Of a stretch of 64,000 bases of DNA, positions 45,046-64,000 are shown piece after piece (within the stretch, counting starts at the first letter, position 1; each line of letters opens with the position of its first letter). The DNA lies in the NCBI GenBank assembly GCA_934163035.1, contig CAKPJX010000002.1:13977-77976 (forward strand), read 5' to 3'. Origin of the DNA: an uncultured Bacilli bacterium (lineage in GTDB: Bacteria > Bacillota_I > Bacilli_A > RF39 > UBA660). Below the pieces are notes generated by a model that was not told the DNA's origin, made no database searches, and saw nothing but the letters and a program-made list of their open reading frames with translations. The translations under genes were made by a program, and so were the position numbers.

Positions 45046-45392
45046 AAATATAAATAAGCCATGTTCTGTTCCTATATAAATAGGCGACAAACATTTATCT
45101 ACCGGACTAGCCGGTCCCTAAATCAGTTTAATTCCTGCTTTAGGACTCCCCTACCAAAATTTGGGTTTCTCGCTCATGGGGTTTACCTCGTTTCACTTCT
45201 TCGTTTCCAAAGACATCGTCACTGTGGCACTTTATGAACTGAATCATATCACAAGGACTTAGATTCATAATTCGCCGTTAGTAATACTACTCAAGGTTAT
45301 TTATTCCCAAGACATGAACACTACAATCATCTCAGACTGTGCGAGCATGGACTTTCCTCAAGGATCTTTAAGACCCCAGCGTTTGTCTATAT
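45046..45392 (-). ncRNA. rnpB: RNase P RNA, type B (Bacillus type)
   Basis: GC-rich island. Minus strand contains GAGGAAAGTCCATGCTCGCACAG, AAGTGCCACAGTGACGA, GGTAAACCCCATGAGCGAGAAACCCAAATTTTGGTAGGGGA and ACAGAACATGGCTTA. These match conserved P4/P10-12/P15-18 blocks of B. subtilis rnpB nearly base for base. Confidence 0.85.
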
Positions 45393-45393
45393 A

Positions 45394-45741
45394 TTAATTG
45401 TCACTATTATTATCTTTATTTAAGCCACTATATACCATCTTTTCAAGTTGAGATAGCCTTCTCATAATATCAACATTTGTAACTTCCGGAACATCATTAT
45501 TACGTGCTACTTCCATGCTAAGCTTAGAATTTCTAAGTTCCTGCTTTAAAGACATAATTTCTGCTAACAAATCGGCTTTTTCCTTTTCTAAATCATTAAT
45601 TATGTTAAAGAATTGCTCATAGTCACCTATAATAATATCCAAAAATTGATCAACTTCTTTTAAACGATATCCACGAGTATCTATTTTAAACTCTTTTTCT
45701 AAAATATCTTGTGGCATAAGCGTAATCTTATTTTGATACAT
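45394..45741 (-). CDS. gpsB: cell cycle protein GpsB (DivIVA-domain)
   Basis: N-terminal DivIVA domain (ILEKEFKIDTRGYRLKEVDQFLD) and a C-terminal short coiled coil. Its position directly upstream of rnpB matches B. subtilis. Confidence 0.8.
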   Translation of the reverse strand: MYQNKITLMPQDILEKEFKIDTRGYRLKEVDQFLDIIIGDYEQFFNIINDLEKEKADLLAEIMSLKQELRNSKLSMEVARNNDVPEVTNVDIMRRLSQLEKMVYSGLNKDNNSDN

Positions 45742-46087: not shown

Positions 46088-46657
46088 ATGAATTATCCTA
46101 CAGGAACTAAAAAGGGGACACAAAAACAAACAATTACATATAACAATAGAGGAATGCTTCTAGAAAGTGAAATAAATATATCTAATGAATATTATAGAGA
46201 AAAAGATAAAGCATATATTTATAAAAAACCAACACCAATAAAAATAACAAAAGTAGATTATCCATCAAGAGAAAAAGCAATAATAAAAGAAGCATTTTTT
46301 ACTGTACCATCAACTACTGATTATAATGGCATTTATAAAGGAAAGTATATAGACTTTGAAGCAAAAGAAACAAAAAGTGATACAGCTTTTGCTTTAGCAA
46401 ACATTCATCCCCATCAAATAGAACATTTAAAAAACATTAATAATCATCAAGGAATTGCTTTTCTAATCATAAGATTTACTAACTTAAATAAAACATATTT
46501 ATTAACTGTAGAAAAACTAATAGATTTTTTAAATAATGAAAAAAGAAAGTCAATACCTATAAAGTATTTTGAAAACAATGCCTATTTGATTAAAGAGGGA
46601 TACATCCCAAGAATTGATTATCTAAATATAGTCGATAAAATTATTGGAGGTAACTAA
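46088..46657 (+). CDS. recU: Holliday junction resolvase RecU
   Basis: RecU/PrfA core (YIDFEAKET ... FLIIRF ...); upstream of, and overlapping, ponA as in Bacillus. Confidence 0.9.
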   Translation: MNYPTGTKKGTQKQTITYNNRGMLLESEINISNEYYREKDKAYIYKKPTPIKITKVDYPSREKAIIKEAFFTVPSTTDYNGIYKGKYIDFEAKETKSDTAFALANIHPHQIEHLKNINNHQGIAFLIIRFTNLNKTYLLTVEKLIDFLNNEKRKSIPIKYFENNAYLIKEGYIPRIDYLNIVDKIIGGN

Positions 46658-49496
46658 TATGGAAAAGAGAAAAATAAAGAAAAGAACGGCAAAAAGTCCA
46701 TCAGGACGAAATAATAATAAAAATGTAAAATCTAAAGTAAATGTAAGTAAAACAGCAAAAGATAATAGCACATTAAAAATGATAATGGCAATAATCTTTA
46801 TAATGCTAATTCTATTCTGCTATTTCGCATTAAATTTAACATTTGCCATAATAGTAGCATTAGGAATCGGAATCATTATAGGAGTTGCAGAGCTACTAAA
46901 AAAATTAGGAAATAAAAGAAAGCTTATAAAAGTATTACTAATAATAATACTTGGCTGTGGAATATTAGGATTATCAGCATTTGCTGGATTCTTAGTTTAC
47001 ATCAAAGTTAAAGCTGATCCAATGTTTGTAAGTTCAAAGCTTGAAACTCCAGAAAATACCACTCTGCTTGATATTGATGGTAAAGAATATGCAAAATTAG
47101 GATCAGAAATGAGAGAAAAAGTCAAATACAATGAATTACCTGAGGTATTAGTTGACGCCATAGTTGCAACAGAAGATTCAAGATTCTTCCAACATAATGG
47201 TTTTGACGCTCCACGTTTTATAAAAGCCGCTATAGGTCAAGCACTTGGAAAATCAGATGCTGGAGGGGCTTCAACACTATCAATGCAAGTTGTTAAAAAT
47301 AGCTTAACAGATGCCAGTGCTACAAAAGGTGCCGAAGGTATAATCCGTAAATTTAAAGATATTTATTTAGCTGTTTTCAAGTTAGAAAAAAAATATACCA
47401 AAGAAGAAATCATTGAATATTATGTAAATAACCACTACTTAGGAGGTAATGTATATGGTGTTCAAGAAGCTGCAGAGGCCTACTTCGGCAAAACAGTAAG
47501 TGAATTAAATTTAAGTGAAGCTGCTATTTTAGCAGGAATGTTTAAGTCCCCAATTGCATATAGACCAACAGATCATGCAGAAAACGCTACAAAAAGAAGA
47601 AATACAGTACTATATTTAATGAGAAAACATGGCTATATAACTGAAGAAGAAGAAAAAATAGCTAAGTCAATATCAGTAGAATCGCTTGTAACAAACAATA
47701 CATCAGCTGTAAATAGTCAATACCAAGGTTATATAGATACCGTAGTAAAAGAAATTGAAAAGAAATATAAAGTAAATGCTTATACTACACCTTTACTTGT
47801 ATATACAAATCTAGATCGTGGAAAACAAGATGCCGTAACTAGAACTATTAATGGAGAAACATTCACATGGATTAATGATAAAATTCAATCTGGTATATCA
47901 GTTCTTGATTCACAAACGGGAAAAATACTTGCCATAGGAAATGGGCGAAATATAGGTAGCCGTTCAGCAAGCGGAATAAAACAATTTAACTATGCCACAG
48001 ATATAAAAAGACAACCAGGATCAACTGCAAAACCATTATTCGATTATGGTCCAGGTATTGAATATAACAACTGGTCTACTTACACATTATTTGATGACTC
48101 ACCTTATACATATTCAAGTGGCCAACAATTAAACAACTGGGATGGTGGCTACTTTGGTACTATAACCTTGAGAAGGGCATTATCAACATCACGTAACGTA
48201 CCGGCACTAAAAGCTTTCCAACAAATTGATAACAAAAAAATAATTGAATTTGTAACAAATTTAGGAATTAAACCTGAAATAGAAAATGGAAAAATTCATG
48301 AAGCTCATGCCATAGGAGCATTTACTGGAACAAATCCGTTACAAATGAGTGCTGCTTATGCTGCATTCTCAAATGGTGGATATTATAATGAACCATACAG
48401 TGTTAGTAAAATAGTTTTCAAATCAACTAACGAAGTCAGAGAACATAAATCTGAAAAGAAACAAGTTATGTCTGAGGCTACAGCCTTCATGATATCAAGT
48501 GTATTACAAGATGTTTCACTATCAGGAGGAGCAAACCTAGAAAATATAGCCCGTAAAACTGGTACTACAAACTATGACGCAAAAACTGCAACTGAAAAAA
48601 ATCTACCATGGGACGCAGTTAGAGATTCGTGGCTAATAGGATATTCAACCAAAACAGTAATAGGATTATGGTATGGATACGATTTTGTTGACAGAGAATA
48701 CTGTCTACATAACATTCCAGCAACAGTTCAAAAAGATAAATTATTTAGAGCCCTAGTAAATGCCGGAGCCATGGAATCAAATAGAGAACCATTCACTCAA
48801 CCAGACAGTGTTGTAAAGGTTGGCGTTGAAATGGGAAGCAACCCAGCTAAAATAGCAAGCCCAGGATCTTCAAATGTAGTTTATGAGTACTTTAAAAAGG
48901 ATTATGCTCCAGAAGAAACATATGTAGAACAAAAAATAGCTAAACCAGATAAACTTAAAGTATCATATGATGAGTCAACAAAGAAAGTAAGTATGAGTTG
49001 GAATGCCGTTACAAAACCAACTATCGATGAAAAAAATCCTGGAACATTTGGCTATAATATATACTTAGATAATACGCTGATAGCCTTTACGGATAAAACA
49101 AGCTATACATTCACGCCGAAATCATCACCGTATGGAACATATAAAGTCATTGCAACATTCAAAGGATATAGTGGCATCCAAAGTGAACCGGCAACATATA
49201 CTCTAAGTAATAATACAGCAGAAAATAACTTTGATATAACAAAATACAAATTAGTATATAATGGTAAAACAACTATTGCAGCAAACTCTACACTAATGAT
49301 AAATATAAATAATTTTGAAGTTAAAAATTCAACAGAAACATTAAATGTCAAATTTAAAAATTGTAGTCTAACCCAGGTTAATACAGCTGGTAAGTATCCA
49401 ATAACATGTACATTTGAATACAATAAAAAAGAATACAGTCTTTCAACAACTATTGAAGTAACAGAAGATACCGAAGGACCTGAAACTACAGAATAA
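46644..49496 (+). CDS. ponA: penicillin-binding protein 1A (bifunctional glycosyltransferase/transpeptidase) with a C-terminal fibronectin-III-like extension
   Basis: Signal anchor, GT51 motifs (EDSRFFQHNGFD, GGASTLSMQ), transpeptidase STAKP (SxxK), SxN and KTG, and a long C-terminal beta-rich extension. Confidence 0.9.
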   Translation: MEVTNMEKRKIKKRTAKSPSGRNNNKNVKSKVNVSKTAKDNSTLKMIMAIIFIMLILFCYFALNLTFAIIVALGIGIIIGVAELLKKLGNKRKLIKVLLIIILGCGILGLSAFAGFLVYIKVKADPMFVSSKLETPENTTLLDIDGKEYAKLGSEMREKVKYNELPEVLVDAIVATEDSRFFQHNGFDAPRFIKAAIGQALGKSDAGGASTLSMQVVKNSLTDASATKGAEGIIRKFKDIYLAVFKLEKKYTKEEIIEYYVNNHYLGGNVYGVQEAAEAYFGKTVSELNLSEAAILAGMFKSPIAYRPTDHAENATKRRNTVLYLMRKHGYITEEEEKIAKSISVESLVTNNTSAVNSQYQGYIDTVVKEIEKKYKVNAYTTPLLVYTNLDRGKQDAVTRTINGETFTWINDKIQSGISVLDSQTGKILAIGNGRNIGSRSASGIKQFNYATDIKRQPGSTAKPLFDYGPGIEYNNWSTYTLFDDSPYTYSSGQQLNNWDGGYFGTITLRRALSTSRNVPALKAFQQIDNKKIIEFVTNLGIKPEIENGKIHEAHAIGAFTGTNPLQMSAAYAAFSNGGYYNEPYSVSKIVFKSTNEVREHKSEKKQVMSEATAFMISSVLQDVSLSGGANLENIARKTGTTNYDAKTATEKNLPWDAVRDSWLIGYSTKTVIGLWYGYDFVDREYCLHNIPATVQKDKLFRALVNAGAMESNREPFTQPDSVVKVGVEMGSNPAKIASPGSSNVVYEYFKKDYAPEETYVEQKIAKPDKLKVSYDESTKKVSMSWNAVTKPTIDEKNPGTFGYNIYLDNTLIAFTDKTSYTFTPKSSPYGTYKVIATFKGYSGIQSEPATYTLSNNTAENNFDITKYKLVYNGKTTIAANSTLMININNFEVKNSTETLNVKFKNCSLTQVNTAGKYPITCTFEYNKKEYSLSTTIEVTEDTEGPETTE

Positions 49497-49500
49497 AAAT

Positions 49501-49538
49501 AAACTCCGTTTCTTAATAACATAGGAAACGGAGTTTTT
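49501..49538. terminator. bidirectional intrinsic terminator between ponA and nth
   Basis: 12-bp GC-containing hairpin AAACTCCGTTTC ... GAAACGGAGTTT followed by a T-run. Confidence 0.7.
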
Positions 49539-49606
49539 ATATTATAAAAAAGATGCCACTCTAAAGGTAACATCTTCCCATTAAAATATTAAACATTTAT
49601 ATATAT

Positions 49607-50242
49607 CTATTTCTTATACATACAGATATCTTTAATTAAACATTTCTCACATAACGGTTTTACAGCCTTACACTTATAGCGACCAAACAATACTAGCTGT
49701 AAATGTCTCCTAGCCCAAGTTTTTTTGGGAAAATAATTCATTAACTTTTTCTCAACAATCAAAACATTATCATTAATATCAGCTAAACCAAGTCTTTTAG
49801 AAACTCTTTCAACATGAGTATCAACAGCAATAGCCGGATAATTATAAAACTCACTTAAAAAAACATTAGCTGTCTTTCTACCAACACCAGTTAACTTTAT
49901 TAATTCATCAAATGACCTAGGAACAACACCATTATACTTATCATCCAATATACCAGCAATTTTCAACACATATAGGCTCTTTTTCCTGTAAGAACCTATT
50001 GGTCTAATAAGTTGCTCTAAATCATTAATAGGAGCCTTTTTAAGCTCCTTTAATGTCTTATATCTACTAAATAAAATAGGAGTTACACTATTAACTCTTT
50101 TATCAGTAGACTGAGCACTAAGCACAATAGCTATCAATAATTCATAATCTTTATTATACAGGAGTTCACATTTAGGATTGGGAAATAATTCATCAAGATA
50201 CTCATCAATTCTCTTATTCATCATCAAACCAATTCCAATCAA
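49607..50242 (-). CDS. nth: endonuclease III
   Basis: HhH-GPD fold (LTGVGRKTANV) and a C-terminal 4Fe-4S Cys cluster (CKAVKPLCEKCLIKDIC). Confidence 0.9.
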   Translation of the reverse strand: MIGIGLMMNKRIDEYLDELFPNPKCELLYNKDYELLIAIVLSAQSTDKRVNSVTPILFSRYKTLKELKKAPINDLEQLIRPIGSYRKKSLYVLKIAGILDDKYNGVVPRSFDELIKLTGVGRKTANVFLSEFYNYPAIAVDTHVERVSKRLGLADINDNVLIVEKKLMNYFPKKTWARRHLQLVLFGRYKCKAVKPLCEKCLIKDICMYKK

Positions 50243-50882
50243 CTATATCCATATCTAAATCTTTTTGATCATCCCTTGACTTATTACGTTTTTTACGATT
50301 ATTTTCAACATCACTAGGTGTTTTAATACCACTTTTTCCCCATTCATACAATATTTTATCTATATATCTTAAGTTAGAAACACCATTAAACGTAGCCTCT
50401 TTGATTGCCTCCTTAATAAGATCCTCACTAATCCCATTATCAAGCCATGCCTTAATAATTTCATATTCCATAGGACTAAGCGTACGTCCAAACTCTCTTT
50501 CAACTAATTCAAAAACATTAGTATTTATCTCTTTTTCAACAGCATTAGCATTATCCATCATAATAAATGATAATTTATTATAAAAATCATCTAGTAATAA
50601 GACCTCTTCCATTAATCCCTTATCATTTTTCACAACCTCAACATTAATAAGATGTTTATCTGTCAATATACTAATATATTCCATGACATCTTTAAGTTCT
50701 ATATTTAAATCATTACTAAACTTTGAAGGATTAAATAATGACTTATTACCAAGACTATATAAATACATCAAAAACACAAATGAACTCATATTTAAATCCA
50801 ACTTCTTTATTTCTCGTAATATATAAAGTGGTATAACTACATTCGCACTACTGAATATATCAATAAACTTTGAACTTTTCAT
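50214..50882 (-). CDS. dnaD: DnaD-domain replication initiation protein
   Basis: N-terminal winged-helix region and a C-terminal DnaD-like domain (ILYEWGKSGIKTP). The dnaD-nth adjacency matches Bacillus. Confidence 0.7.
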   Translation of the reverse strand: MKSSKFIDIFSSANVVIPLYILREIKKLDLNMSSFVFLMYLYSLGNKSLFNPSKFSNDLNIELKDVMEYISILTDKHLINVEVVKNDKGLMEEVLLLDDFYNKLSFIMMDNANAVEKEINTNVFELVEREFGRTLSPMEYEIIKAWLDNGISEDLIKEAIKEATFNGVSNLRYIDKILYEWGKSGIKTPSDVENNRKKRNKSRDDQKDLDMDIVDWNWFDDE

Positions 50883-53766: not shown

Positions 53767-55077
53767 ATGTCATTACCTGTAGTAGCCCTAGTAGGTAGAC
53801 CAAATGTAGGAAAATCAACACTATTCAATAAAATAGTAGGAAAAAAAATATCAATTATTGAAGATATACCAGGTGTTACAAGAGATCGTATATATCAAGA
53901 AGTAGTCTACAACAAGAAAAAGTTTTATTTAATTGACACCGGTGGAATTGATACAAGTAAAATTAGTTTTAATGAAGAAATAAAAATGCAGGCTGAAATA
54001 GCTATTGATGAAGCCGATATAGTAGTTTTTATAGTAGATGGAAAAGATGGATTAACTTCAAATGACTTAATCGTAAGAGACATTTTAAGGAAAAGTAATA
54101 AAAAAATAATCGTCGCAATAAATAAAATAGATGTTAAAGAAGCTAAAGACAATTTATATGACTTCTATGAATTAGGATTTGAAAAACTAATACCAATAAG
54201 TAGTATTCATAATAATGGATATATAGATTTAATGGAAGCCATCACTAAAAATTTTAATGAACATGAAGAAAAAGAAGATTCTAGATTAAAACTTTCAATA
54301 ATAGGAAGACCAAACGTTGGTAAAAGTAGTCTTATGAATGCTCTATTAAATGAAGAAAGAGTTGTAGTATCAGATATAGCTGGAACAACAAGAGACTCCA
54401 TAGATTCTGTTTTAAAATATCATAATGAAGAATATATCTTAATTGACACAGCCGGTATGAGAAAAAAAGGTAAAATATTTGAAAGTATTGAAAAATATAG
54501 TCTTATGAGATCATTAAAAGCAATCGATAGATCAGATATCTCTCTAGTTGTTATAAATGCTGAAGAAGGTATAACAGAACACGATAAACATATTGCTGGA
54601 TATGCCATTGAAAAAGGTAAAGGTTTAATATTTGTAGTTAATAAATGGGATACCGTTAAAGATACAACAATCAATGAATTTGAAAAGAAAATGCGAGCTG
54701 AATTTCAGTTTGCTACATACGCCCCAATTGTCTATCTTTCAGCATTAACTAAAAAAAGAATTCATACCCTTATGCCAGAAGTAATAAAAACTGCTGAGAA
54801 CACTAAAAAAGAAATAAAAACAAGTATTTTAAATGATGTAATATTAGATGCATATCAATTAAACTTACCCCCTTCATATAAAGGTAAAAGATTGAAAATT
54901 TATTTTACATCACAAACAGGAACAAAACCACCTAAATTTACATTTAGAGTTAACAATAAAGGATTAGTACATTTTTCATATGAAAGATATCTAGAAAATA
55001 AAATTAGGGAAAACTTTGATTTTTCAGGTACGCCAATAGTTTTACAATTTAAAAATAGAAAGGATGATGACCAATGA
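53767..55077 (+). CDS. der: ribosome-biogenesis GTPase Der (EngA)
   Basis: Two tandem GTPase domains (GRPNVGKST twice, DTGG/DTAG, NKID/NKWD) and a KH-like C-terminus. Confidence 0.95.
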   Translation: MSLPVVALVGRPNVGKSTLFNKIVGKKISIIEDIPGVTRDRIYQEVVYNKKKFYLIDTGGIDTSKISFNEEIKMQAEIAIDEADIVVFIVDGKDGLTSNDLIVRDILRKSNKKIIVAINKIDVKEAKDNLYDFYELGFEKLIPISSIHNNGYIDLMEAITKNFNEHEEKEDSRLKLSIIGRPNVGKSSLMNALLNEERVVVSDIAGTTRDSIDSVLKYHNEEYILIDTAGMRKKGKIFESIEKYSLMRSLKAIDRSDISLVVINAEEGITEHDKHIAGYAIEKGKGLIFVVNKWDTVKDTTINEFEKKMRAEFQFATYAPIVYLSALTKKRIHTLMPEVIKTAENTKKEIKTSILNDVILDAYQLNLPPSYKGKRLKIYFTSQTGTKPPKFTFRVNNKGLVHFSYERYLENKIRENFDFSGTPIVLQFKNRKDDDQ

Positions 55078-55337
55078 TAATAGGAAACAACAACAGCTTT
55101 AGTAAAAATCCATTTTTAAATAATAAACAACATAATACTAATAATAACGTAAAAGACATAAGTACATTAACTGAGGATATATCACAATTCAAATATACAA
55201 ATCCAAAAGATAGAGATGCTATGTGTGACAAAAGCCTAGCTATGATAAGAGATAGATATGAAAAAAAACTAATAACACTAGATGAGTTTAAAAGGCAAAG
55301 TGATAAAATAAGAAAATTTAGAGAAAAAAATTATTAA
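55074..55337 (+). CDS. hypothetical small protein
   Basis: 87 aa, overlaps the der stop (ATGA); no motif. Confidence 0.3.
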   Translation: MIIGNNNSFSKNPFLNNKQHNTNNNVKDISTLTEDISQFKYTNPKDRDAMCDKSLAMIRDRYEKKLITLDEFKRQSDKIRKFREKNY

Positions 55338-55378: not shown

Positions 55379-55618
55379 ATGTTTGGAGATAGCTTTTTTA
55401 AAAAAGTAGAAAAAAAGACAAATGTTAATAAAGAAACTATATTATCATTAGCCCAAAAACTACAAAACTCTAATATGAAAGATGAAAATACGATCAGAGA
55501 AATAATAAGTGATATAAGTAATATGACAGGAAAAGAAGTATCAAAAGAGAAAGAAGATAAAATAATTAATGCCATTATGAAAGACAAAGTACCAACAAAT
55601 ATAGATAAAATGTTTTAA
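55379..55618 (+). CDS. small protein resembling stage VI sporulation protein F (SpoVIF)
   Basis: 79 aa. FFKKVEKKTNVNKETILSLAQKL ... GKEVSKEKEDKIINAI resembles the SpoVIF family (memory-based). It has an RBS and a terminator downstream. Confidence 0.35.
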   Translation: MFGDSFFKKVEKKTNVNKETILSLAQKLQNSNMKDENTIREIISDISNMTGKEVSKEKEDKIINAIMKDKVPTNIDKMF

Positions 55619-55687: not shown

Positions 55688-55725
55688 ATAAAAAGCTTTC
55701 CATAATAGGTATGGAAAGCTTTTTA
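55688..55725 (-). terminator. intrinsic terminator of the cadherin-like surface protein gene
   Basis: 14-bp hairpin AAAAGCTTTCCATA ... TATGGAAAGCTTTT overlapping the stop codon, followed by a T-run on the minus strand. Confidence 0.6.
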
Positions 55726-57339
55726 AATTGTTTCTAATTGTTCTTCTTTATTATTATCATTATTCTTCTTAGCTAGTACAAATAATACTACTGATATTAA
55801 AACTAAAACAATAAATATTATATATGGTAATATTCCGATACTACTCTTTTTCTCAACAGTTATTTTATACGTCTTAGTTGTTCCATCTTCTGCTGTTACT
55901 ATTATAGATATAACACTTCCATCTTTTAGATTACTGTTACCATCTATTTCATAACTTGCTTTACTATCACTACACTTAGCTTTTATATTAAGTTTATCTT
56001 CTTTTATCTTTACTTTATAATTATATGTATTAATATTAAATTCTAACTTATATCCATCAATAGTTAATTCCCTTAACTTATTATTTGAAGATAACTTAAC
56101 ATTTTTTTCTTGTCTAATTACAGTTAATCTATAACTCTTAACATCACCATTTTCTGCTGTTACTAATATCTCAAATAAATTCTCTCCTACTTTTAATTTC
56201 TTATCCCCTTTTATTTCTGTCTTTGCCCTAGAATTATTTAAGATTGCATCTATTGTTATATTCTCATTCTCATATGGTACTTTTATTTCATATGCAGTTT
56301 TATCATTTGAAACGCTTACTACACCAGTTGATAATTTAATTTCTTTTAAGGTATTATCCTTACTTCTATCATCTTTTCTTGTCACCTTAATAACATAAGT
56401 TCTTACATTTCCATTTTCAGCTTGAACACTTATTTTTATAGTATTTAAACCATAAGCCAGACTAACATTCATCGATTTACTTCCAGCAGTGTATTTTGAT
56501 TTAGCATCTGTTAAGTTAGAAGTAACTTTAATACTACTAACATTTGAATCTACATCTAAACTATACTCATTTTTACCTGGAGTAAAATTAATCTTACCAG
56601 GACTTAACGTTAAACTAGACAAAGTATTAACTGAACTTCTATTATCCGGTCTATTAACCTTTATTGTATAAACACTCCTATTACCTGCTTCTGCTACTAC
56701 AGCTATATAAAATGTATTCATTCCATAATTAAGGTTTTTAACCCCTAAACCATCTACTCTACCAACTGCTGTTCCAGATATAGTAATACTTTGAGAATTA
56801 GTAGTAACCGAATATACTGTTGTTGAAGGATTAAAACTAGGACTCAATGTTCCACCACTTACTGATAAAGAACTTAAATTAGAATCAGTTGATTTAGCCG
56901 CTATAGATCTAGAAACATCACTCTGAGATCTTTCTACATAATTTTCATCACCTAAACTAATACCAGTGATATTAACACTGCCACCACTAAACCCATTTCC
57001 AGCCTTTACTGTAAAACTTCCTATTGCTACATTACCAGTAAAAAGATTTTCTCCATAAAGTATAAACATACCGCCATTCTGTTTATCACCTTGCCATCCA
57101 GAAGCAATATTATAATTACTTATTTCTAAATTACTACCAACAACCTGACCAGTAAACGAAACAAGAGCACCACTAGATACAGGAACACTAATGCTACAAG
57201 TAGTTGATTCACCAGGAGCCAGCTTTGAAGCACCACAATTTAAGTTTACACTAGCACTTAAAGCATCAGCACTAAAAGGCATTAAAAACACTAAACCTAA
57301 AATAAACAATATCTTTTTTTTCATAATTACCTCTCTCAA
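55723..57339 (-). CDS. membrane-anchored cell-surface protein with about 4 cadherin-like beta-sandwich repeats
   Basis: Signal peptide; repeated LSSLSVSGGTLSPSFNPSTTVYSV ... VYTIKVNR-type modules (cadherin-like beta-sandwich domain); C-terminal transmembrane anchor and charged tail. Confidence 0.6.
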   Translation of the reverse strand: MREVIMKKKILFILGLVFLMPFSADALSASVNLNCGASKLAPGESTTCSISVPVSSGALVSFTGQVVGSNLEISNYNIASGWQGDKQNGGMFILYGENLFTGNVAIGSFTVKAGNGFSGGSVNITGISLGDENYVERSQSDVSRSIAAKSTDSNLSSLSVSGGTLSPSFNPSTTVYSVTTNSQSITISGTAVGRVDGLGVKNLNYGMNTFYIAVVAEAGNRSVYTIKVNRPDNRSSVNTLSSLTLSPGKINFTPGKNEYSLDVDSNVSSIKVTSNLTDAKSKYTAGSKSMNVSLAYGLNTIKISVQAENGNVRTYVIKVTRKDDRSKDNTLKEIKLSTGVVSVSNDKTAYEIKVPYENENITIDAILNNSRAKTEIKGDKKLKVGENLFEILVTAENGDVKSYRLTVIRQEKNVKLSSNNKLRELTIDGYKLEFNINTYNYKVKIKEDKLNIKAKCSDSKASYEIDGNSNLKDGSVISIIVTAEDGTTKTYKITVEKKSSIGILPYIIFIVLVLISVVLFVLAKKNNDNNKEEQLETI

Positions 57340-60300
57340 TCTAATGAATCAATTCTCTTTTTAACAAAACTATACATCTTAGATACATCAACAGCAGATA
57401 TTTTTCCATCACCAGTAACATCACTAGCTAACAAATAATAGTCTTCACTAATGTTTATCCTCTTCCTAATGTGACTATATACCTTAGATACATCAGCAGC
57501 AGTTACTTTTCCATCTCCATTAACATCGCCCATAATAATATTCTTTATCTCTAATACAACATCACTATTCTTCATTATTTTAGTAATACTACCTGTAAAC
57601 ACTAAATCATCTTCTCCAAGCAATTTATTTTCTAAATCATATACTGCTATACTATAATCTTTTCCAATATCAAATTTAGTTAAATATTCTTTTAATTTAG
57701 TATTAGGCTTAATATTTCTTAGATAATTATTACTATCAAGTACATAATCTTTTATTTCATAGTCAATATCAAGTTTCCAAATAGCATACAATATAATATT
57801 TTCATCATTGGAAGTAATATTATTAATTATTTGTTGATCTTTATATGATTTACCAGTTCCATCTGCCTTTGTGTTCCACTCCTTAAAGTAATAACCCTCC
57901 ATAACAAATGCATTTTTATTCAATGCAGCTTCTGTATCATAAATAAACTCTTGACTATCCATTGTACCAGAAGCCCCATTTGGCATAAATGCAATAGTAT
58001 AGTGAATAGGTACATACTGTGCATACAAGGTAATTACATCACCATCAGTAGCAGATAAATTAATAAGCTCTTTACTTACAGAATAGCTACTACCAGTTCC
58101 ATCTGCCTTTGTATTCCAAGAATTCAAAATATATCCCTTTTTAACAAATTTATCCATTGATACTTTTTTTGATTCATCATATTTAAGAGTAATATCAGAA
58201 AGTTCACCAGAAGTTCCATTATTATCAAATTTTACAGTATAACTAATAGGTGACCATATAGCATACAAAACTATTGTTCCATCACTATCAGCTAAGTTAT
58301 ATATTTCAGCCTTATCTTTATAACTATCACCGGTTCCATCTGCTTTTAAGTTCCATTCAACAAATGAGTATCCCACTTTAGTATAAGTATTTTCATTTAA
58401 GTTAACAATATCATCATAATTTAAAATCTGGTTAGGCATTTCACCTTCGCCACCATTACTATTAAATTGAACAGTGTATTGAATTGGCACCCATTGTGCA
58501 TATAAATAAATTATACTGCCATCTTTATCTGTTAAGTTAAAAATATCATCACCATCATTATATACAGAACCAGATCCATCAAGCATCGTATTCCAACCTA
58601 TAAATTTATATCCTTCTTTTGTATAAGCATTAGCTACTAAACTAGATTTAACATCGTATTTAAATATTTGATTAGGCATCTCACCAACAACATCATTACC
58701 AACAAATTTTATCTCATAGCTTATAGGAACCCATTGAGCATATAAAGTTATTGTTTCATTCTTATCTGTTAAATTTGTAACTATCCCTTTATTAGAATAG
58801 TTCTCTCCAGTACCATCAGCCTTTGTATTCCAACTTGTAAACTTATATCCTAATTTAGTATAGGTATTAGTATATAGCTGTTTAGCAATATCAAACTCAA
58901 AAATTTGATTAAACATCTCGCCTTCGCCACCATTAGGATTAAAAGTCACTTCATACCCAGCTATCATCCATTGAGCATATAGAGTAATATCTCCATCAGC
59001 ATCTAAAATATTCAAAACTTCAGCTTCATCATCATATGAAGTTCCACTTCCATCAATCATTGTGTTCCAACCTATAAATGTATAGCCATTATTTGTAAAT
59101 TTATTTTTTTCTAAATGATCAACTTTATCATAAGTAAGATGCTGATTTAACATTTGTCCATCTCCACCATTAGCATCAAATCTAACTTCATATTCAATAG
59201 CTTCCCATTGAGCATATAGGACAAGTGTTGCATTCTTATCAAGTAAATTAGATACTTCGCTATTATCATTATAATAGTAGCCCGTTCCATCGGCCTTTGT
59301 ATTCCAATTAACAAAATTATAACCATATTTAGTAAACTTATTAAAAGACAAATTATACAGATGACCATATTCAAAAACATCATCAGACATTTCGCCTTCG
59401 CCACCATTACTATTAAATTGAACAGTGTATTGAATTGGCACCCATTGTGCATACAAAGTAATACTAGACTCTCCATAATAATTTATATCCTCTAAATTAG
59501 CATTATCAGAATAGATATCACCATTACCATCGGCATTAGTACACCAAGAGGAAAAAGTATATCCTACCCTTTCAAACGAGTTACTATATAATTTTGAAAG
59601 ATTTTCATAAGTAAACGATTGATCTGGCATTTGGCCATAACCACCATTACCTTCATATCTAACAACATAATTAATAACTTTCCACTGTGCATATAAAACA
59701 ATAACAGAACCATCAACATCAGTTAATTCTCTAACATATTGTTTATCATCGAAAGCATCGCCAGTACCATCACTTTTTGTATTCCAACCAACAAATCTAT
59801 ATCCCCTTTTCTCATAAAGATTGCTGCTCAAATAAGCATCATCATTATACGCTAAAACCACATCATCCATAGTACCTAGTCCACCATTACTATTATATCT
59901 AATAGTATAAGTAATAATTGTCCATTGAGCATATAGAGTAACAGTTTCATTAGTAGTCAAATTTTTAACAGTAGCTTTGTCATTGTAACTAGTACCAGTA
60001 CCATCACTTTCTGTATTCCAACCTGTAAACTTATATCCCTTCCTAACAAAAGTGTTATCTGGTAATAAAAATTCTTGATCATAATATACTTTAAAGTCGC
60101 CAATTGAACCACTTCCAGCATTATTATCATAAATAACAGTATATTCAATAGCTTCCCATTGAGCATACAAAACAATAGTCTCACCAGCTAAAGCAATATT
60201 TTCAATTTCAGCATTACCTGCATAAGAATCACCACTTCCATCTTGAGCAGTATTCCAACCAACAAATTTGTAACCACCCTTACTGAAAATATTAGACTTC

Positions 60301-63300
60301 GTTTTAATAATCATATCAACAGGAACAGTTTCAGAAATAACATCACCTGTGCCATTATTTGAGTCATAATTGATAGTATAATTTTCACTACCTAAAACAG
60401 TCAAATCAACATCTCTTTCATAACCATCATAATTGCTAACAACATGAATAGTTGTTTTTCCAACATCAAGAGCTGTAATATTACCATCTTTATCTATACT
60501 GGCAATCGAATTATCTGCCATTTCAAAACTAATATTTTTAGCAAATAAACTATTAGGAGTAATAGCAGTAAATAAATTATAATTATCACCCTTATTCAAA
60601 GTAATATCGGAAACATTTGTATACTCAAAATTGACAAAATTAAGAATTGGTATACGGCTAATTCCATTTATATTATCTGACTTCCAATATTTGCTAAATG
60701 AAGCCCAAACTAAATATAAATTAACATCATTTAAATTAGTAATATTAGTCTTATTAACAGTAGAATCAACAATTCCATCCTCTAGAGTTTTGTTAGTAGT
60801 ATCATATATTGAAAAAGTTCCAGTACCACTAGTATAATATCCATTTTCCAAAGTAACATTATCAACAACATCAGAATAAACACGCCCTATAATTGAATTA
60901 TAATCTGAATAATCTGAGCTAGCATTATCAGATGCAATTACAAAATTATTAAGTGTAAGTCCAGCACCAACATTATCAATAAGTAAACCTTGTCTATATG
61001 ATTTTTCAGAAATATTAAATTTACCTAAAACCTCAATATTACTAATTGAAAGAGCAGTACCACTAGAACCATCAATAGAATTAATAAGCCAAGGATAATT
61101 AGAATGATTTATAGTAGAAGAAAATATACCATTAATCAACAATTTATTTTTATATCTTAGTGATATATCACCAATAAAGCTTCCATTCTTTATATTAATA
61201 TTATCACCCATTATAGCGATATTTTCAATTAATACACCATAATCAGATGTAGAAAGATTATAGTCAATATAATCAATAACCTCCTTAGAAAAAGCTCCCT
61301 TATCACTAGTTGTAAAATCTTTAAGAGTAAAATTTCTTATAATCGTAGGAGCATTTTTATTTGCACTCACTGTACTAAATAAACTATCATCAAGTCCAGA
61401 AATAATATAACCAGAACCATCAAAGTTTCCATAAAATTCAACTGGACTCCAAGAATAACCATCCACTGAACTTATATCATTACCTAATTTAAAATAGGCA
61501 TCTGGTTGATCACCTAAAGTTTCTAGTTCAACAACACTTGTAATAATATAAGGAGAATTTTCAACACCATCTCCAACAATTTCTTTTATTGGATATAAAG
61601 TAATTTTAGATTCAACATCAAGTTCTCCATATAATGTATGCAATGTATAAACACCTACAGGTACACTATTATCAATTGTAAAAAATGCATTAACAAAATT
61701 AGCTGAAACAACATTATTAGTAACTGACAACTTACTAGAAATATCAACACCATCAGAATCATATAACTTATAGTTTAAAATTTCTCCACTATTTATATTT
61801 TTAGTATTTGTTGAAACACTAAATTCATAATTATCAGAATTCTTTGTAGATAATGTACTTCTAAAGTAAGAATCCTTAGTATTAATTTCTTGTTTTGAAT
61901 CAACTGTTTTAGTAAATACTTGTGCACCATCAACAAGAAGACCACCATTAGAACCAAGAATCTTAATCGAAAAACTCTCATCCGCTAAAACAATATCATC
62001 ATTAGAAAAATCAACAGTATATAATCCAGGATTATCACCATCTAAAGTCTTAACTTTATTATTATTAACATAAACAGTATAAGATGCATCAGATGAAGTT
62101 GTAATAAATTTTACTTTCATAAGTTTTTCAGAAGATACAGATGCTCTCTTATAATCTATATGTAAATTAGATGTTATATAATAATAAGGCTTTTTAAGAA
62201 AGTTCGTTGAATAATAACCATTCCAATTCTTATCACTAGCACTACTAAGCTCAGTAACTAATCCAATATCACTATCTAATGAATCATAAGCTAAATACAC
62301 ATATGGATACCTATTTGCTCCCCAAGAATTCTTCAAGATCCAAGCACCTTTACCAGTTACGGTATCATCAGAGGAACATGAAGATGTATATTTAGAGTGA
62401 GAGTTAGAGTCATGACAATATTTATATTCATAATCATCATCCCAACCAACTATTTGCATTGCATGACTACTATTTTGTACACAATAATTATCAACCCTTA
62501 TTACAGCCGAATCATCTGTTAGAATAGAGCAACTAGATTGTGGACTCTCAGTCCCAACATATGCTCCACCATTCTTAATTACATTATTCTTAATTAAACT
62601 TAAATAACTATCTCTTTTTTTAATATCATCACTATTTGTCAAATCCAAATCAACAATATTAAGAACTGGTACTTTAATAGCACTATTAACTTCATATAAT
62701 GAGTTTTTATCATTTAAAACCTTTGAGTATTCTAATTGTTCTAAAGAAGAACTATATCCCATTAAACTATCATCAACCATAGTAAGACCAGAGGCCATAG
62801 CATAAGAACTAATAGTAAAGTTTCCTCCAGAGCCAAGGGCTCTAAAACCCATTTTATTATCATAATTTTTAATTCCATTATTTGAAGTAGCATAGTCTAT
62901 TTGTCTCTCAGAAAAAAGTTGAGATGAAGAATCATATGACTTATTACTAGAAATTAACAACTTACTCTCAATCTGCCCATAAGAGGCAAATGACCAGCAA
63001 ATCCCAAGATTACCTTGATCCTTAACTTCTGAAATGAAGTTTTTACCATCAACATTACCCAAATTATATTTGGAAGGTAAACCATCAGTAATATCACCAG
63101 TAGAAGTATAATCAAATATATAAGTTTCCGGTATTAAAGATGAAGCATTTTTCTCATCATCACTTAAAGTTAAATAATCTACAAATTCAGGATTTAAATA
63201 AGCAACACCATCTTTTTTATTTTTCTCAGTCAAAACAACATCACCAGTTTTTTCATACGCCTCAATAATAAAATTCTTAGCTTCAACTGGTAAATAACTA

Positions 63301-63443
63301 TAACTACTGCTTTCTAAAACTTTATTAATATCAATGTCTTTATCTTTAGATAATTTAAAATAAATAAAACCACCAAAAATTATTGCTATTAAAACAACAA
63401 AAGTTAATAAAAATTTCTTTTTTAATCTAAAAACCCTTTTCAT
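57336..63443 (-). CDS. giant secreted multidomain protein: papain-like (C1) cysteine protease + about 12 Listeria-Bacteroides (flg_new) repeats + Ig-like domain + C-terminal dockerin
   Basis: N-terminal signal anchor. C1 protease motifs QGNLGICWSFASYG (Cys), SHAMQIVGWDD (His) and ILKNSWGANRYPYVYLAYD (Asn). One Big_2-like domain. Twelve YTVTFDxNGG ... GYTFxGWNT ... DGSG ... TLYAQW repeats. Terminal DVNGDGKVTAADVSKVY ... DVTGDGKISAVDVSKMY dockerin duplicate. Confidence 0.8.
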   Translation of the reverse strand: MKRVFRLKKKFLLTFVVLIAIIFGGFIYFKLSKDKDIDINKVLESSSYSYLPVEAKNFIIEAYEKTGDVVLTEKNKKDGVAYLNPEFVDYLTLSDDEKNASSLIPETYIFDYTSTGDITDGLPSKYNLGNVDGKNFISEVKDQGNLGICWSFASYGQIESKLLISSNKSYDSSSQLFSERQIDYATSNNGIKNYDNKMGFRALGSGGNFTISSYAMASGLTMVDDSLMGYSSSLEQLEYSKVLNDKNSLYEVNSAIKVPVLNIVDLDLTNSDDIKKRDSYLSLIKNNVIKNGGAYVGTESPQSSCSILTDDSAVIRVDNYCVQNSSHAMQIVGWDDDYEYKYCHDSNSHSKYTSSCSSDDTVTGKGAWILKNSWGANRYPYVYLAYDSLDSDIGLVTELSSASDKNWNGYYSTNFLKKPYYYITSNLHIDYKRASVSSEKLMKVKFITTSSDASYTVYVNNNKVKTLDGDNPGLYTVDFSNDDIVLADESFSIKILGSNGGLLVDGAQVFTKTVDSKQEINTKDSYFRSTLSTKNSDNYEFSVSTNTKNINSGEILNYKLYDSDGVDISSKLSVTNNVVSANFVNAFFTIDNSVPVGVYTLHTLYGELDVESKITLYPIKEIVGDGVENSPYIITSVVELETLGDQPDAYFKLGNDISSVDGYSWSPVEFYGNFDGSGYIISGLDDSLFSTVSANKNAPTIIRNFTLKDFTTSDKGAFSKEVIDYIDYNLSTSDYGVLIENIAIMGDNINIKNGSFIGDISLRYKNKLLINGIFSSTINHSNYPWLINSIDGSSGTALSISNIEVLGKFNISEKSYRQGLLIDNVGAGLTLNNFVIASDNASSDYSDYNSIIGRVYSDVVDNVTLENGYYTSGTGTFSIYDTTNKTLEDGIVDSTVNKTNITNLNDVNLYLVWASFSKYWKSDNINGISRIPILNFVNFEYTNVSDITLNKGDNYNLFTAITPNSLFAKNISFEMADNSIASIDKDGNITALDVGKTTIHVVSNYDGYERDVDLTVLGSENYTINYDSNNGTGDVISETVPVDMIIKTKSNIFSKGGYKFVGWNTAQDGSGDSYAGNAEIENIALAGETIVLYAQWEAIEYTVIYDNNAGSGSIGDFKVYYDQEFLLPDNTFVRKGYKFTGWNTESDGTGTSYNDKATVKNLTTNETVTLYAQWTIITYTIRYNSNGGLGTMDDVVLAYNDDAYLSSNLYEKRGYRFVGWNTKSDGTGDAFDDKQYVRELTDVDGSVIVLYAQWKVINYVVRYEGNGGYGQMPDQSFTYENLSKLYSNSFERVGYTFSSWCTNADGNGDIYSDNANLEDINYYGESSITLYAQWVPIQYTVQFNSNGGEGEMSDDVFEYGHLYNLSFNKFTKYGYNFVNWNTKADGTGYYYNDNSEVSNLLDKNATLVLYAQWEAIEYEVRFDANGGDGQMLNQHLTYDKVDHLEKNKFTNNGYTFIGWNTMIDGSGTSYDDEAEVLNILDADGDITLYAQWMIAGYEVTFNPNGGEGEMFNQIFEFDIAKQLYTNTYTKLGYKFTSWNTKADGTGENYSNKGIVTNLTDKNETITLYAQWVPISYEIKFVGNDVVGEMPNQIFKYDVKSSLVANAYTKEGYKFIGWNTMLDGSGSVYNDGDDIFNLTDKDGSIIYLYAQWVPIQYTVQFNSNGGEGEMPNQILNYDDIVNLNENTYTKVGYSFVEWNLKADGTGDSYKDKAEIYNLADSDGTIVLYAIWSPISYTVKFDNNGTSGELSDITLKYDESKKVSMDKFVKKGYILNSWNTKADGTGSSYSVSKELINLSATDGDVITLYAQYVPIHYTIAFMPNGASGTMDSQEFIYDTEAALNKNAFVMEGYYFKEWNTKADGTGKSYKDQQIINNITSNDENIILYAIWKLDIDYEIKDYVLDSNNYLRNIKPNTKLKEYLTKFDIGKDYSIAVYDLENKLLGEDDLVFTGSITKIMKNSDVVLEIKNIIMGDVNGDGKVTAADVSKVYSHIRKRINISEDYYLLASDVTGDGKISAVDVSKMYSFVKKRIDSLD
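57840..60310. repeat. tandem coding repeats of about 235 bp (11-12 copies) inside the giant gene
   Basis: The block CC(A/G)GTTCCATC ... TTCCAAC ... TATATCC recurs about every 235 bp at roughly 57845, 58097, 58329, 58565, 58810, 59045, 59281, 59521, 59762, 59995 and 60230. Confidence 0.7.
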
Positions 63444-63612: not shown

Positions 63613-64000
63613 ATGGATAAACAAGAAATTATTAAGAATATTGCGAAAAGAAGCGGTGGAGACATTTATCTAGGAGTAGTAGGTGCAGTAAGAACAGGAA
63701 AATCAACTTTTATAAAGAAAATGGTTGAAACTTTAATCGTCCCTAATATTGAAGATGAATATGAAAGAAAAAGAGCTCTAGATGAAATTCCTCAAAGTGC
63801 CGCTGGAAAAACCATTATGACAACAGAACCAAAGTTTGTACCAAACAATGCTGCTAACATTAAGATTGATGATTTTTCATGTAACATAAGATTAATAGAT
63901 TGTGTTGGATATATGATTGATAAAGCCCAAGGTGCCAGTGATGAGAATGGTCCAAGAATGGTAAAAACACCATGGTACAATGAAGAAATACCATTTACCG
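63613..64000 (+). CDS. spoIVA: stage IV sporulation protein A (spore coat morphogenetic ATPase), N-terminal 129 aa; runs off the window end
   Basis: AAGGAG RBS, then MDKQEIIKNIAKRSGGDIYLGVVGAVRTGKSTFIKKMVETL ... IPQSAAGKTIMTTEPKFVPNNA ... IRLIDCVGY ... ENGPRMVKTPWY. This is near-identical in pattern to B. subtilis SpoIVA (Walker A GAVRTGKST). Confidence 0.85.
   Translation, partial: MDKQEIIKNIAKRSGGDIYLGVVGAVRTGKSTFIKKMVETLIVPNIEDEYERKRALDEIPQSAAGKTIMTTEPKFVPNNAANIKIDDFSCNIRLIDCVGYMIDKAQGASDENGPRMVKTPWYNEEIPFT

Follow-up and report, generated by a model that had tools for sequence, protein, structure and literature searches.

Pairing of cohesins with dockerins is usually tied to fibre-degrading Clostridia and ruminococci. 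In the ScaE (type III) system of Ruminococcus flavefaciens, a protein with a single N-terminal cohesin is anchored in the envelope through an LPXTG signal and receives X-dockerin partners as part of a fibre-degrading cellulosome. OlpA and OlpC of Clostridium thermocellum, which are also from a cellulosomal organism, carry canonical type I cohesins and are anchored through SLH domains, and the non-cellulosomal cohesins of Clostridium perfringens sit inside secreted glycoside hydrolases (GH84C and GH33) as modules that link these enzymes to one another. Among the dockerin proteins of R. flavefaciens FD-1, which has a large multi-scaffoldin cellulosome and more than 200 dockerins, 16 are annotated as peptidases and 28 contain leucine-rich repeats (LRRs) (PMC2930009); for dockerins and cohesins outside cellulosomes the same paper refers to Peer et al. 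(2009). In human ruminococci many cohesins escape hidden Markov models (HMMs) and are detectable only by AlphaFold structure, and the proteins listed as associated with them include Flg, LRR, and endopeptidase modules (bioRxiv 10.64898/2026.02.05.704116). Here we describe two adjacent genes, called below the cargo gene and the anchor gene, in a 64 kb stretch of DNA (the window, which is also the range covered by our census of motifs, modules, and genes). It seems quite likely that they encode a non-cellulosomal cohesin–dockerin pair whose members would bind one another, so that a gut member of the Bacillota would display a protease/adhesin on its surface.

The evidence for a cohesin lies in the 126 residues that directly follow the signal peptide of the anchor protein (Table 1), which themselves have no Pfam or NCBIfam match. 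An AlphaFold2 (AF2) model of this module, built on a 42-sequence family alignment, is all-β (mean pLDDT 96.4, pTM 0.88), and in a Foldseek comparison with the PDB its best 13 matches are all cohesins (TM-score 0.64–0.76, probability 1.00), as are more than 20 of the top 26. The predicted structure has the β-sandwich (jelly-roll) fold of ∼130–150 residues that places a domain in the cohesin class. The leading matches are the C. perfringens non-cellulosomal cohesins 2jh2, 2w1n, and 2vo8 (E down to 5e-6, TM-score 0.73–0.76; the best is 2jh2_A with E = 5e-6 and TM-score 0.75), and the later ones are cohesins from C. thermocellum, C. acetobutylicum, A. cellulolyticus, P. cellulosolvens, R. flavefaciens, and Archaeoglobus. 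At the sequence level, hhalign aligns the module with a protein that has a PF00963-annotated cohesin (P = 7e-4, strands in register), and a search of the PDB with the family profile returns the two R. flavefaciens cohesins 5m2o and 5aoz in register, at sub-threshold values (E = 0.6–0.9). Single-sequence phmmer of the module against the PDB gave antibody noise only, and word-index searches found no homologues of either the module or the canonical cohesin of P0132; with the C-terminal X-dockerin (X-Doc) region of the cargo the same kind of search found 4 proteins only. As modeled, the tip of the anchor is a cohesin-fold module that has diverged beyond profile detection. The C. perfringens modules (2jh2, 2w1n, 2vo8, and 2o4e) are its closest relatives in fold, and they likewise come from a non-cellulolytic, host-associated member of the Bacillota with cargo for host-type substrates rather than cellulose; on the other hand, identity to them is 6–12%, and the window cohesin tips a dedicated membrane anchor encoded beside its cargo.

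An exhaustive phmmer search with the 126-residue query against 1.84 billion cluster representatives (E ≤ 1e-3) matched 128 representative proteins, a few of them spuriously through the short motif LAPGESTTC (see below). The entire domain is aligned in 106 of these, and in ∼80% of the 106 it starts at residue 22–25, just after the signal peptide. Only C9, C22, and W56 are invariant or nearly so in the 42-sequence alignment. A transmembrane helix closes ∼40 of the 106 representatives, and in ∼32 the C-terminus is a sorting signal of the NPxTG type with a hydrophobic stretch and then a basic tail behind it; because of these endings the family is, by its sequences, one of envelope anchors. The NPxTG-type endings (for example in P0013, P0021, P0022, P0032, P0033, P0035, P0040, and P0044, with NPKTG the commonest form) resemble sortase signals of the non-LPXTG class; the window anchor has a plain transmembrane helix, and since its C-terminus, ending in KKSSIGILPYIIFIVLVLISVVLFVLAKKNNDNNKEEQLETI, contains no LPXTG or NPXTG motif it does not classify as a sortase-anchored surface protein.

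The genomic surroundings of this family tie it to dockerins. A narrower search with the family alignment had returned 4 genome loci and 4 metagenome loci. In all 14 of the distinct loci that could be assessed (the window, L003–L006, L008–L010, L012–L015, L017, and L019; L011 is cut at the relevant edge), the gene adjoining a family member encodes a product that ends in a dockerin, which in L014 is a remnant (Table 1). The dockerin gene usually lies immediately upstream, often overlapping the cohesin-like gene or a few nucleotides away from it; in L012 it lies downstream. The L014 remnant encodes the second half of a dockerin and appears to be what is left of a cargo gene after decay or truncation. 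In six representatives (P0076, P0052, P0061, P0068, P0101, and P0113) a single chain has both modules, the cohesin-like one N-terminal and the dockerin C-terminal, and P0047, in which the order is dockerin, cohesin-like module, transmembrane helix, brings the both-module representatives to seven. On this genomic evidence, adjacency together with fusions, the module falls into the cohesin class also by its pairing with dockerin proteins. The protein encoded at L015/L016, from another metagenome, is a full-length homologue of the cargo with the same architecture and 32–42% identity, in which all three catalytic motifs of the peptidase are kept. Because homologues of cargo and anchor thus stand side by side where the genomic context is unrelated, the cargo–anchor pair, as far as these sequences tell, moves as a unit.

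The original prediction had stated that no cohesin is visible in the window, and it had suggested that the dockerin could dock unconventionally onto the cadherin-like β-sandwich repeats of a membrane-anchored neighbor of 538 aa. The repeats and the membrane anchor are there, and the neighbor does appear to be the likely docking partner; the absence of a cohesin does not hold at the level of fold, where the top 13 PDB matches of the neighbor's module are all cohesins, and the length is most likely 533 aa (see below). The cadherin-like repeats are real by Pfam and are found in most close relatives of the anchor. However, the same protein already has a cohesin-fold module, members without a Pfam cadherin-like match on record still adjoin a dockerin or its remnant (for example P0002/L014), both-module proteins such as P0076 have no cadherin-like repeats, and the constant element beside dockerins is the N-terminal module and not the repeats. 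Docking onto the repeats is therefore extremely unlikely, and as a docking surface they were rejected, being unnecessary as well as a misfit to those dockerin-paired members. A cohesin that explains the dockerin, which was named as the finding that would count against unconventional docking, is essentially supplied by the adjacent gene. A dockerin without a cohesin is then no longer a puzzle, since the next gene encodes one that has diverged beyond profile detection. The adjacent gene encodes an anchored stalk tipped by a diverged cohesin, and the pair is therefore probably ordinary cohesin–dockerin display in an unusual lineage rather than unconventional docking.

Several observations weigh against the cohesin–dockerin interpretation. 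The PF00963 and NCBIfam models match none of the 42 family members (Pfam at E ≤ 1), in which no Pfam family of any kind scores above threshold, so by PF00963 profile match the module is not a cohesin. The hhalign probability against a canonical cohesin is just 26%, and P is 0.15 against a CipA cohesin sequence. The dockerin part of the X-Doc model reaches pLDDT values of only 50–72, the hydrophobic N-terminus of the cargo may be an uncleaved membrane anchor that would make anchoring by the dockerin partly redundant, and 64 kb of the genome were seen, so other cohesins or dockerins may lie elsewhere. In addition, β-sandwich folds can converge, and of all PDB sequences that of the CLIPPER/DUF11 domain 9ifr matches the family profile best (E = 0.071). 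The module could accordingly be a generic CLIPPER/DUF11-like β-sandwich of a stalk or adhesin with a convergent likeness to cohesins, and the dockerin would then have its partner elsewhere or another role. 9ifr is a structural match as well (E = 4e-4, TM-score 0.68), sub-threshold BatD/DUF11-like matches occur in 6 of the 42 members, and the motif LAPGESTTC is shared with the DUF11-type repeat proteins P0003, P0004, and P0009. CLIPPER domains are defined by a Lys–Asn isopeptide and a catalytic Asp and typically form tandem repeats in stalks (bioRxiv 10.1101/2025.04.25.650565), whereas the invariant residues of the present family are only two Cys and a Trp, the isopeptide residues are not conserved, and the module occurs singly in each protein, at the distal tip. 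DUF11 (PF01345) matches 1 of the 42 members (E = 0.005), and on all these counts together the family does not classify with CLIPPER/DUF11. Structurally, cohesins rank above 9ifr, which is 14th among the Foldseek matches, and a generic stalk would leave the 14 of 14 dockerin adjacencies and the fusions unexplained. We consider such a convergent origin of the cohesin likeness unlikely. The LAPGESTTC motif lies in the first hairpin of the module and recurs in every repeat of the three DUF11/CLIPPER-type proteins, which are from unrelated organisms, and it yields spurious high-scoring matches in multiple stretches.

The partner in the proposed cohesin–dockerin pair is the C-terminus of the cargo protein. 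Dockerin_1 (PF00404) matches residues 1972–2022 (40.8 bits against a gathering threshold of 22.9, E = 2.5e-10), and phmmer of this region against the PDB finds the dockerins 2ccl_B (E = 0.0024) and 4uyq_B (E = 0.0042). A six-frame motif scan of the window shows the duplication as the segments DVNGDGKVTAAD and DVTGDGKISAVD, and found no dockerin-like motif in the window besides this C-terminal pair. The corresponding ∼22-residue segments, DVNGDGKVTAADVSKVYSHIRKR and DVTGDGKISAVDVSKMYSFVKKR, are nearly identical, and in each a helix comes after a DxNxDGxxxxxD Ca2+ loop; the AF2 X-Doc model places two helices where they are expected, at low confidence. By its Pfam profile and its duplicated loop–helix segments, then, the cargo C-terminus reads as a real dockerin of the PF00404 (type I-like) family. 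Near-identical segments would permit a dual binding mode, as with type I dockerins. In the dockerins of L004, L006, L008, and L010 the second Ca2+-binding loop has degenerated, as in GDVVMDEEIRITD, and the helix that follows it is kept; Dockerin_1 mostly fails on the dockerins of the relatives, and that of the window is the most canonical of the set. Directly before the dockerin lies a module of ∼80 aa that is conserved across the family and is modeled by AF2 with pLDDT 90–96. It is placed like the X modules of type II/III X-dockerins, a likeness of position only, and the X-Doc model has no significant neighbor among PDB folds for it.

The remainder of the 2035-aa cargo protein consists of a peptidase and a long arm. 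Peptidase_C1 (PF00112) matches residues 134–377 (32.3 bits; gathering threshold 20.7), and the catalytic motifs QGNLGICWSF (Cys149), HAMQIVGW (His327), and NSWG (Asn372) are intact. When the PDB is searched with this domain by phmmer, cathepsins and dipeptidyl peptidase I come up. In the alignment with the latter, QGNLGICWSF pairs with the motif of the active-site Cys and NSWG with that of the Asn; HAMQIVGW, which is not part of that alignment, fits the papain-family His motif by pattern. By profile and by its Gln–Cys–His–Asn residues the cargo is thus a predicted papain-family peptidase of MEROPS family C1. The Lectin_like (PF18560) match directly after the peptidase is sub-threshold (E = 0.0012, 19.5 bits against a gathering threshold of 27). 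In C. difficile, Cwp84 is a surface-displayed, cathepsin-L-like C1 cysteine protease in which a lectin-like β-sandwich follows the peptidase (PMC4089489), and the cargo has its Lectin_like match in the same position. Unlike the cargo, Cwp84 uses cell-wall-binding repeats and not a dockerin, no Flg_new arm is reported for it, and there is no significant sequence match between the two. A Cwp84-type lectin-like identity for the post-peptidase domain was considered and set aside, since the Pfam match is a single, sub-threshold one and a sequence search of the PDB with this domain gave no match to Cwp84 and no support. Residues 619–943 have no Pfam match at E ≤ 0.1; this ∼325-aa region may be a β-helix. 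The Flg_new repeats total 323.6 bits in 11 stretches, with units of 78–80 aa that span residues 1017–1889, and NCBIfam agrees on the Listeria–Bacteroides repeat. Thus, of the features ascribed to the cargo in the original prediction, the C1 protease with its intact triad and the Ig-like domain are both borne out, the duplicated dockerin came through the profile search that had been named for it beforehand, and the repeats, given as about 12, number exactly 11. Dockerin-borne peptidases, in turn, are not unprecedented, because R. flavefaciens FD-1 encodes the 16 mentioned above.

Both open reading frames (ORFs) were confirmed; they are co-directional on the minus strand and together fill the interval from 55723 to 63443, in which G+C content (∼27–30%) is the same as in the remaining window. 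An AGGAG ribosome-binding site is located 7 nt 5′ of the cargo ATG. The anchor ORF is 538 codons long when read from a TTG (55723–57339), and an ATG at 57324 gives 533 aa, the length and start of the public gene call. The ATG is most likely the true start, because a GAGAGG Shine–Dalgarno sequence precedes it in the gap after the cargo TGA. The hairpin beyond the anchor gene straddles the anchor stop codon (55723–55725) and lies between this gene and a convergent SpoVIF-like gene. From this layout the cargo and anchor genes look like one bicistronic operon. A promoter scan was uninformative in such AT-rich DNA (65 sites found versus 58 expected).

The cargo protein begins with a basic stretch and 19 hydrophobic residues that are not followed by an obvious AxA cleavage site, and the N-termini of its relatives L004 and P0047 are similar. 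If this segment were retained as a membrane anchor, the dockerin could engage cohesins on the same or neighboring cells and so loop or cross-link a surface layer, with adaptors to extend the network; such cell–cell or polymer assembly is a variant of the cohesin–dockerin display proposed above. The both-module proteins (including those encoded by family genes in L009 and L013) could be adaptors or self-assembling units and hint at multi-tier assemblies in some genomes, and two or three cohesin-like genes stand in tandem in L006, L008, L009, and L013. The window, however, has a single cohesin-like gene in a simple one-to-one pair and no adaptor, Gram-positive signal peptides are often long, and the analysis gave no sign that the N-terminus is retained. 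Cross-linking by this pair is thus quite unlikely.

Compared with the systems described at the outset, the pair shares with ScaE the single N-terminal cohesin on an envelope anchor and a partner whose C-terminal dockerin has a conserved X-type module in front of it. The ScaE-related PDB entry 2zf9 is among the Foldseek matches, and about one-third of the present family ends in a sortase-type NPxTG signal. It differs from ScaE in that the anchor is a transmembrane helix with a cadherin-like stalk and not an LPXTG signal, its cohesin is not seen by PF00963, the cargo is a protease/adhesin and not a cellulosome scaffoldin, and the lineage is one of Bacilli/Erysipelotrichaceae-like metagenome-assembled genomes (MAGs) and not Ruminococcus. 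As with OlpA and OlpC (3ul4 and 4dh2 are among the Foldseek matches), there is one surface-anchor cohesin, an enzyme-borne dockerin, and no multi-cohesin scaffoldin; the cellulosomal host and canonical type I cohesins set these two apart from the window anchor. The peptidase and LRR cargo classes of FD-1 recur in the present family, whereas those of FD-1 do not come as one-to-one gene pairs of a cargo and its own anchor. The HMM-invisible ruminococcal cohesins likewise keep the fold despite a sequence divergence that defeats profile HMMs; they belong to another genus and other cohesin families and are centered on carbohydrate-active enzymes (CAZymes) and amylases, a distinction made here by description only. 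The relatives carry LRR, Flg_new, Big_2, and one NAGPA as cargo domains, with no CAZymes of the cellulosomal type seen among them, and no CAZyme domain was found by Pfam in the window cargo. With one cohesin-like module (E = 1.5e-42; the next best match has E = 0.4) and one dockerin in the window, the locus does not qualify as a cellulosome- or amylosome-type complex. What sets the locus apart is an unannotated cohesin family with an invariant Cys pair and an anchor made of a cadherin-like stalk and a transmembrane helix, together with a strict one-to-one gene cassette, adhesin/protease cargo instead of a CAZyme, and a different lineage.

Table 1 Features of the two-gene locus, its surroundings in the window, and related loci (positions are window coordinates unless a locus is named)
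Feature	Position	Strand	Basis or remark
Cargo gene	57336–63443	−	ORF, 2035 aa; C1 peptidase, Big_2, 11 Flg_new, X module, dockerin
Candidate export signal or signal-anchor	63357–63443	−	MKRVFRLKKK plus 19 hydrophobic residues, read from translation
Papain-family C1 peptidase domain	62313–63044	−	Pfam PF00112 and motifs
Gln143/Cys149 motif	62988–63017	−	Catalytic motif position
His327 motif	62442–62465	−	Catalytic motif position
Asn372 motif	62319–62330	−	Catalytic motif position
Possible lectin-like β-sandwich directly after peptidase	61914–62135	−	Lead only; sub-threshold PF18560
∼325-aa region	60615–61589	−	GDGxxxxPYxI motif, Asn/Ile-rich periodic segments
Big_2 Ig-like domain	60432–60605	−	Pfam PF02368, residues 947–1004, 29.6 bits
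Eleven tandem Flg_new (Listeria–Bacteroides) repeats	57777–60395	−	Pfam PF09479
Conserved ∼80-aa module directly 5′ of dockerin, X-module-like position	57531–57776	−	Conserved in alignment of relatives
C-terminal dockerin	57339–57530	−	Pfam PF00404; segments 57459–57527 and 57354–57422
Intergenic gap, 11 nt, with GAGAGG Shine–Dalgarno sequence	57325–57335	−	Sequence read; close coupling of genes
Anchor gene	55723–57324	−	ORF, 533 aa; signal peptide, cohesin-like, 4 cadherin-like, transmembrane helix
Signal peptide MKKKILFILGLVFLMPFSADA	57262–57324	−	Cleavage-type site between ADA and L, read from translation
Diverged cohesin-fold module (predicted), 126 aa	56884–57261	−	AF2 and Foldseek; invariant Cys pair and Trp
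Four cadherin-like β-sandwich domains, stalk/spacer	55846–56883	−	Pfam PF12733, 115.3 bits, 4 stretches
C-terminal transmembrane helix	55771–55839	−	Read from translation
Lys-rich cytoplasmic tail (predicted)	55726–55770	−	Read from translation
Hairpin, 16-bp stem, likely operon terminator	55689–55725		Terminator-like scan
spoIVA	63613–64000	+	Cut by window end
SpoVIF-family gene	55379–55618	+	
ORFs of 276, 111, and 87 aa	52488–53656 (−); 55074–55337 (+)		No Pfam match; called as genes on public scaffold
recU and class A PBP (+), nth and dnaD (−)	46088–50882		PBP with transglycosylase and transpeptidase
Class B bacterial RNase P RNA	45050–45395	−	281 bits
L003, L005			Flg_new cargo adjoins cohesin-like gene
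L004			874-aa LRR protein with dockerin adjoins cohesin-like gene
L006/L007, L008, L009			Dockerin-ending protein adjoins cohesin-like gene
L010, L012, L013			Dockerin-ending protein adjoins cohesin-like gene
L014 dockerin remnant, 45 codons	L014:770–907		Directly upstream of cohesin-like anchor gene
L015/L016			1433-aa Peptidase_C1–Flg_new–dockerin protein adjoins cohesin-like gene
L017/L018, L019			Dockerin-ending protein adjoins cohesin-like gene
Family genes encoding both modules	L009:9580–11643; L013:2007–2984		
Tandem cohesin-like genes (two or three)	L006:7917–10320; L008:5306–7638; L009:7911–11643; L013:1066–3484		

Sporulation genes, spoIVA and a SpoVIF-family gene, flank the pair (Table 1), from which the source organism is probably a spore former. 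The window also contains a class B bacterial RNase P RNA, as expected for the Bacillota, and a group of recU, class A penicillin-binding protein (PBP), nth, and dnaD genes whose arrangement resembles the dnaD–nth–ponA–recU region of Bacillus subtilis. This neighborhood is consistent with the “uncultured Bacilli” labels on related MAGs; the MAGs in which relatives occur, some of them under that label and others under Erysipelotrichaceae, were obtained from the rumen and the human gut. Three further ORFs between the PBP region and the SpoVIF-family gene have no Pfam match and are called as genes on the public scaffold.

If the two products work as a cohesin–dockerin pair, the anchor would be a type I membrane protein that loses its signal peptide and is held in the membrane by its C-terminal helix, and its four cadherin-like β-sandwiches would span the wall as a stalk with the single diverged cohesin at the distal tip. 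The exported cargo would bind this cohesin in a Ca2+-dependent manner through the dockerin that follows its X-like module, and binding would hold the papain-type peptidase, with its long arm of 11 Flg_new repeats and Ig-like domains, at the cell surface. There the peptidase would be expected to bind and cleave host, dietary, or neighboring-cell proteins. A broader proposition, possible but doubtful, is that the module represents a previously undescribed, profile-invisible cohesin family whose members share an invariant Cys pair and form more than 100 clusters at 50% identity, and that this family would underlie a dedicated cohesin–dockerin surface-display system of gut and rumen Bacilli/Erysipelotrichaceae-like bacteria. 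The cargo of such a system, mounted on stalks held by transmembrane helices or by sortase, would be internalin-like adhesins (LRR, Flg_new, Big_2) and C1 proteases, and not CAZymes, and both-module adaptors might allow a higher-order “adhesosome” parallel to the cellulosome.

The locus places a proposed cohesin–dockerin mechanism, hidden from profile annotation, in a low-GC, probably spore-forming gut member of the Bacillota in the form of a two-gene cassette for the display of proteases and internalin-like adhesins. If the binding is true, it would widen the known range of non-cellulosomal cohesin–dockerin systems, supply a simple rule by which over 100 gut-metagenome surface anchors labeled “hypothetical,” and the cargo that goes with them, could be annotated, and offer a compact orthogonal cohesin–dockerin pair for protein engineering. 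The surface cysteine protease of this uncultured gut bacterium is also marked as a candidate host-interaction factor. The finding is of use chiefly for annotation and because it extends non-cellulosomal cohesin–dockerin display, which seems quite likely here, to gut Bacilli.

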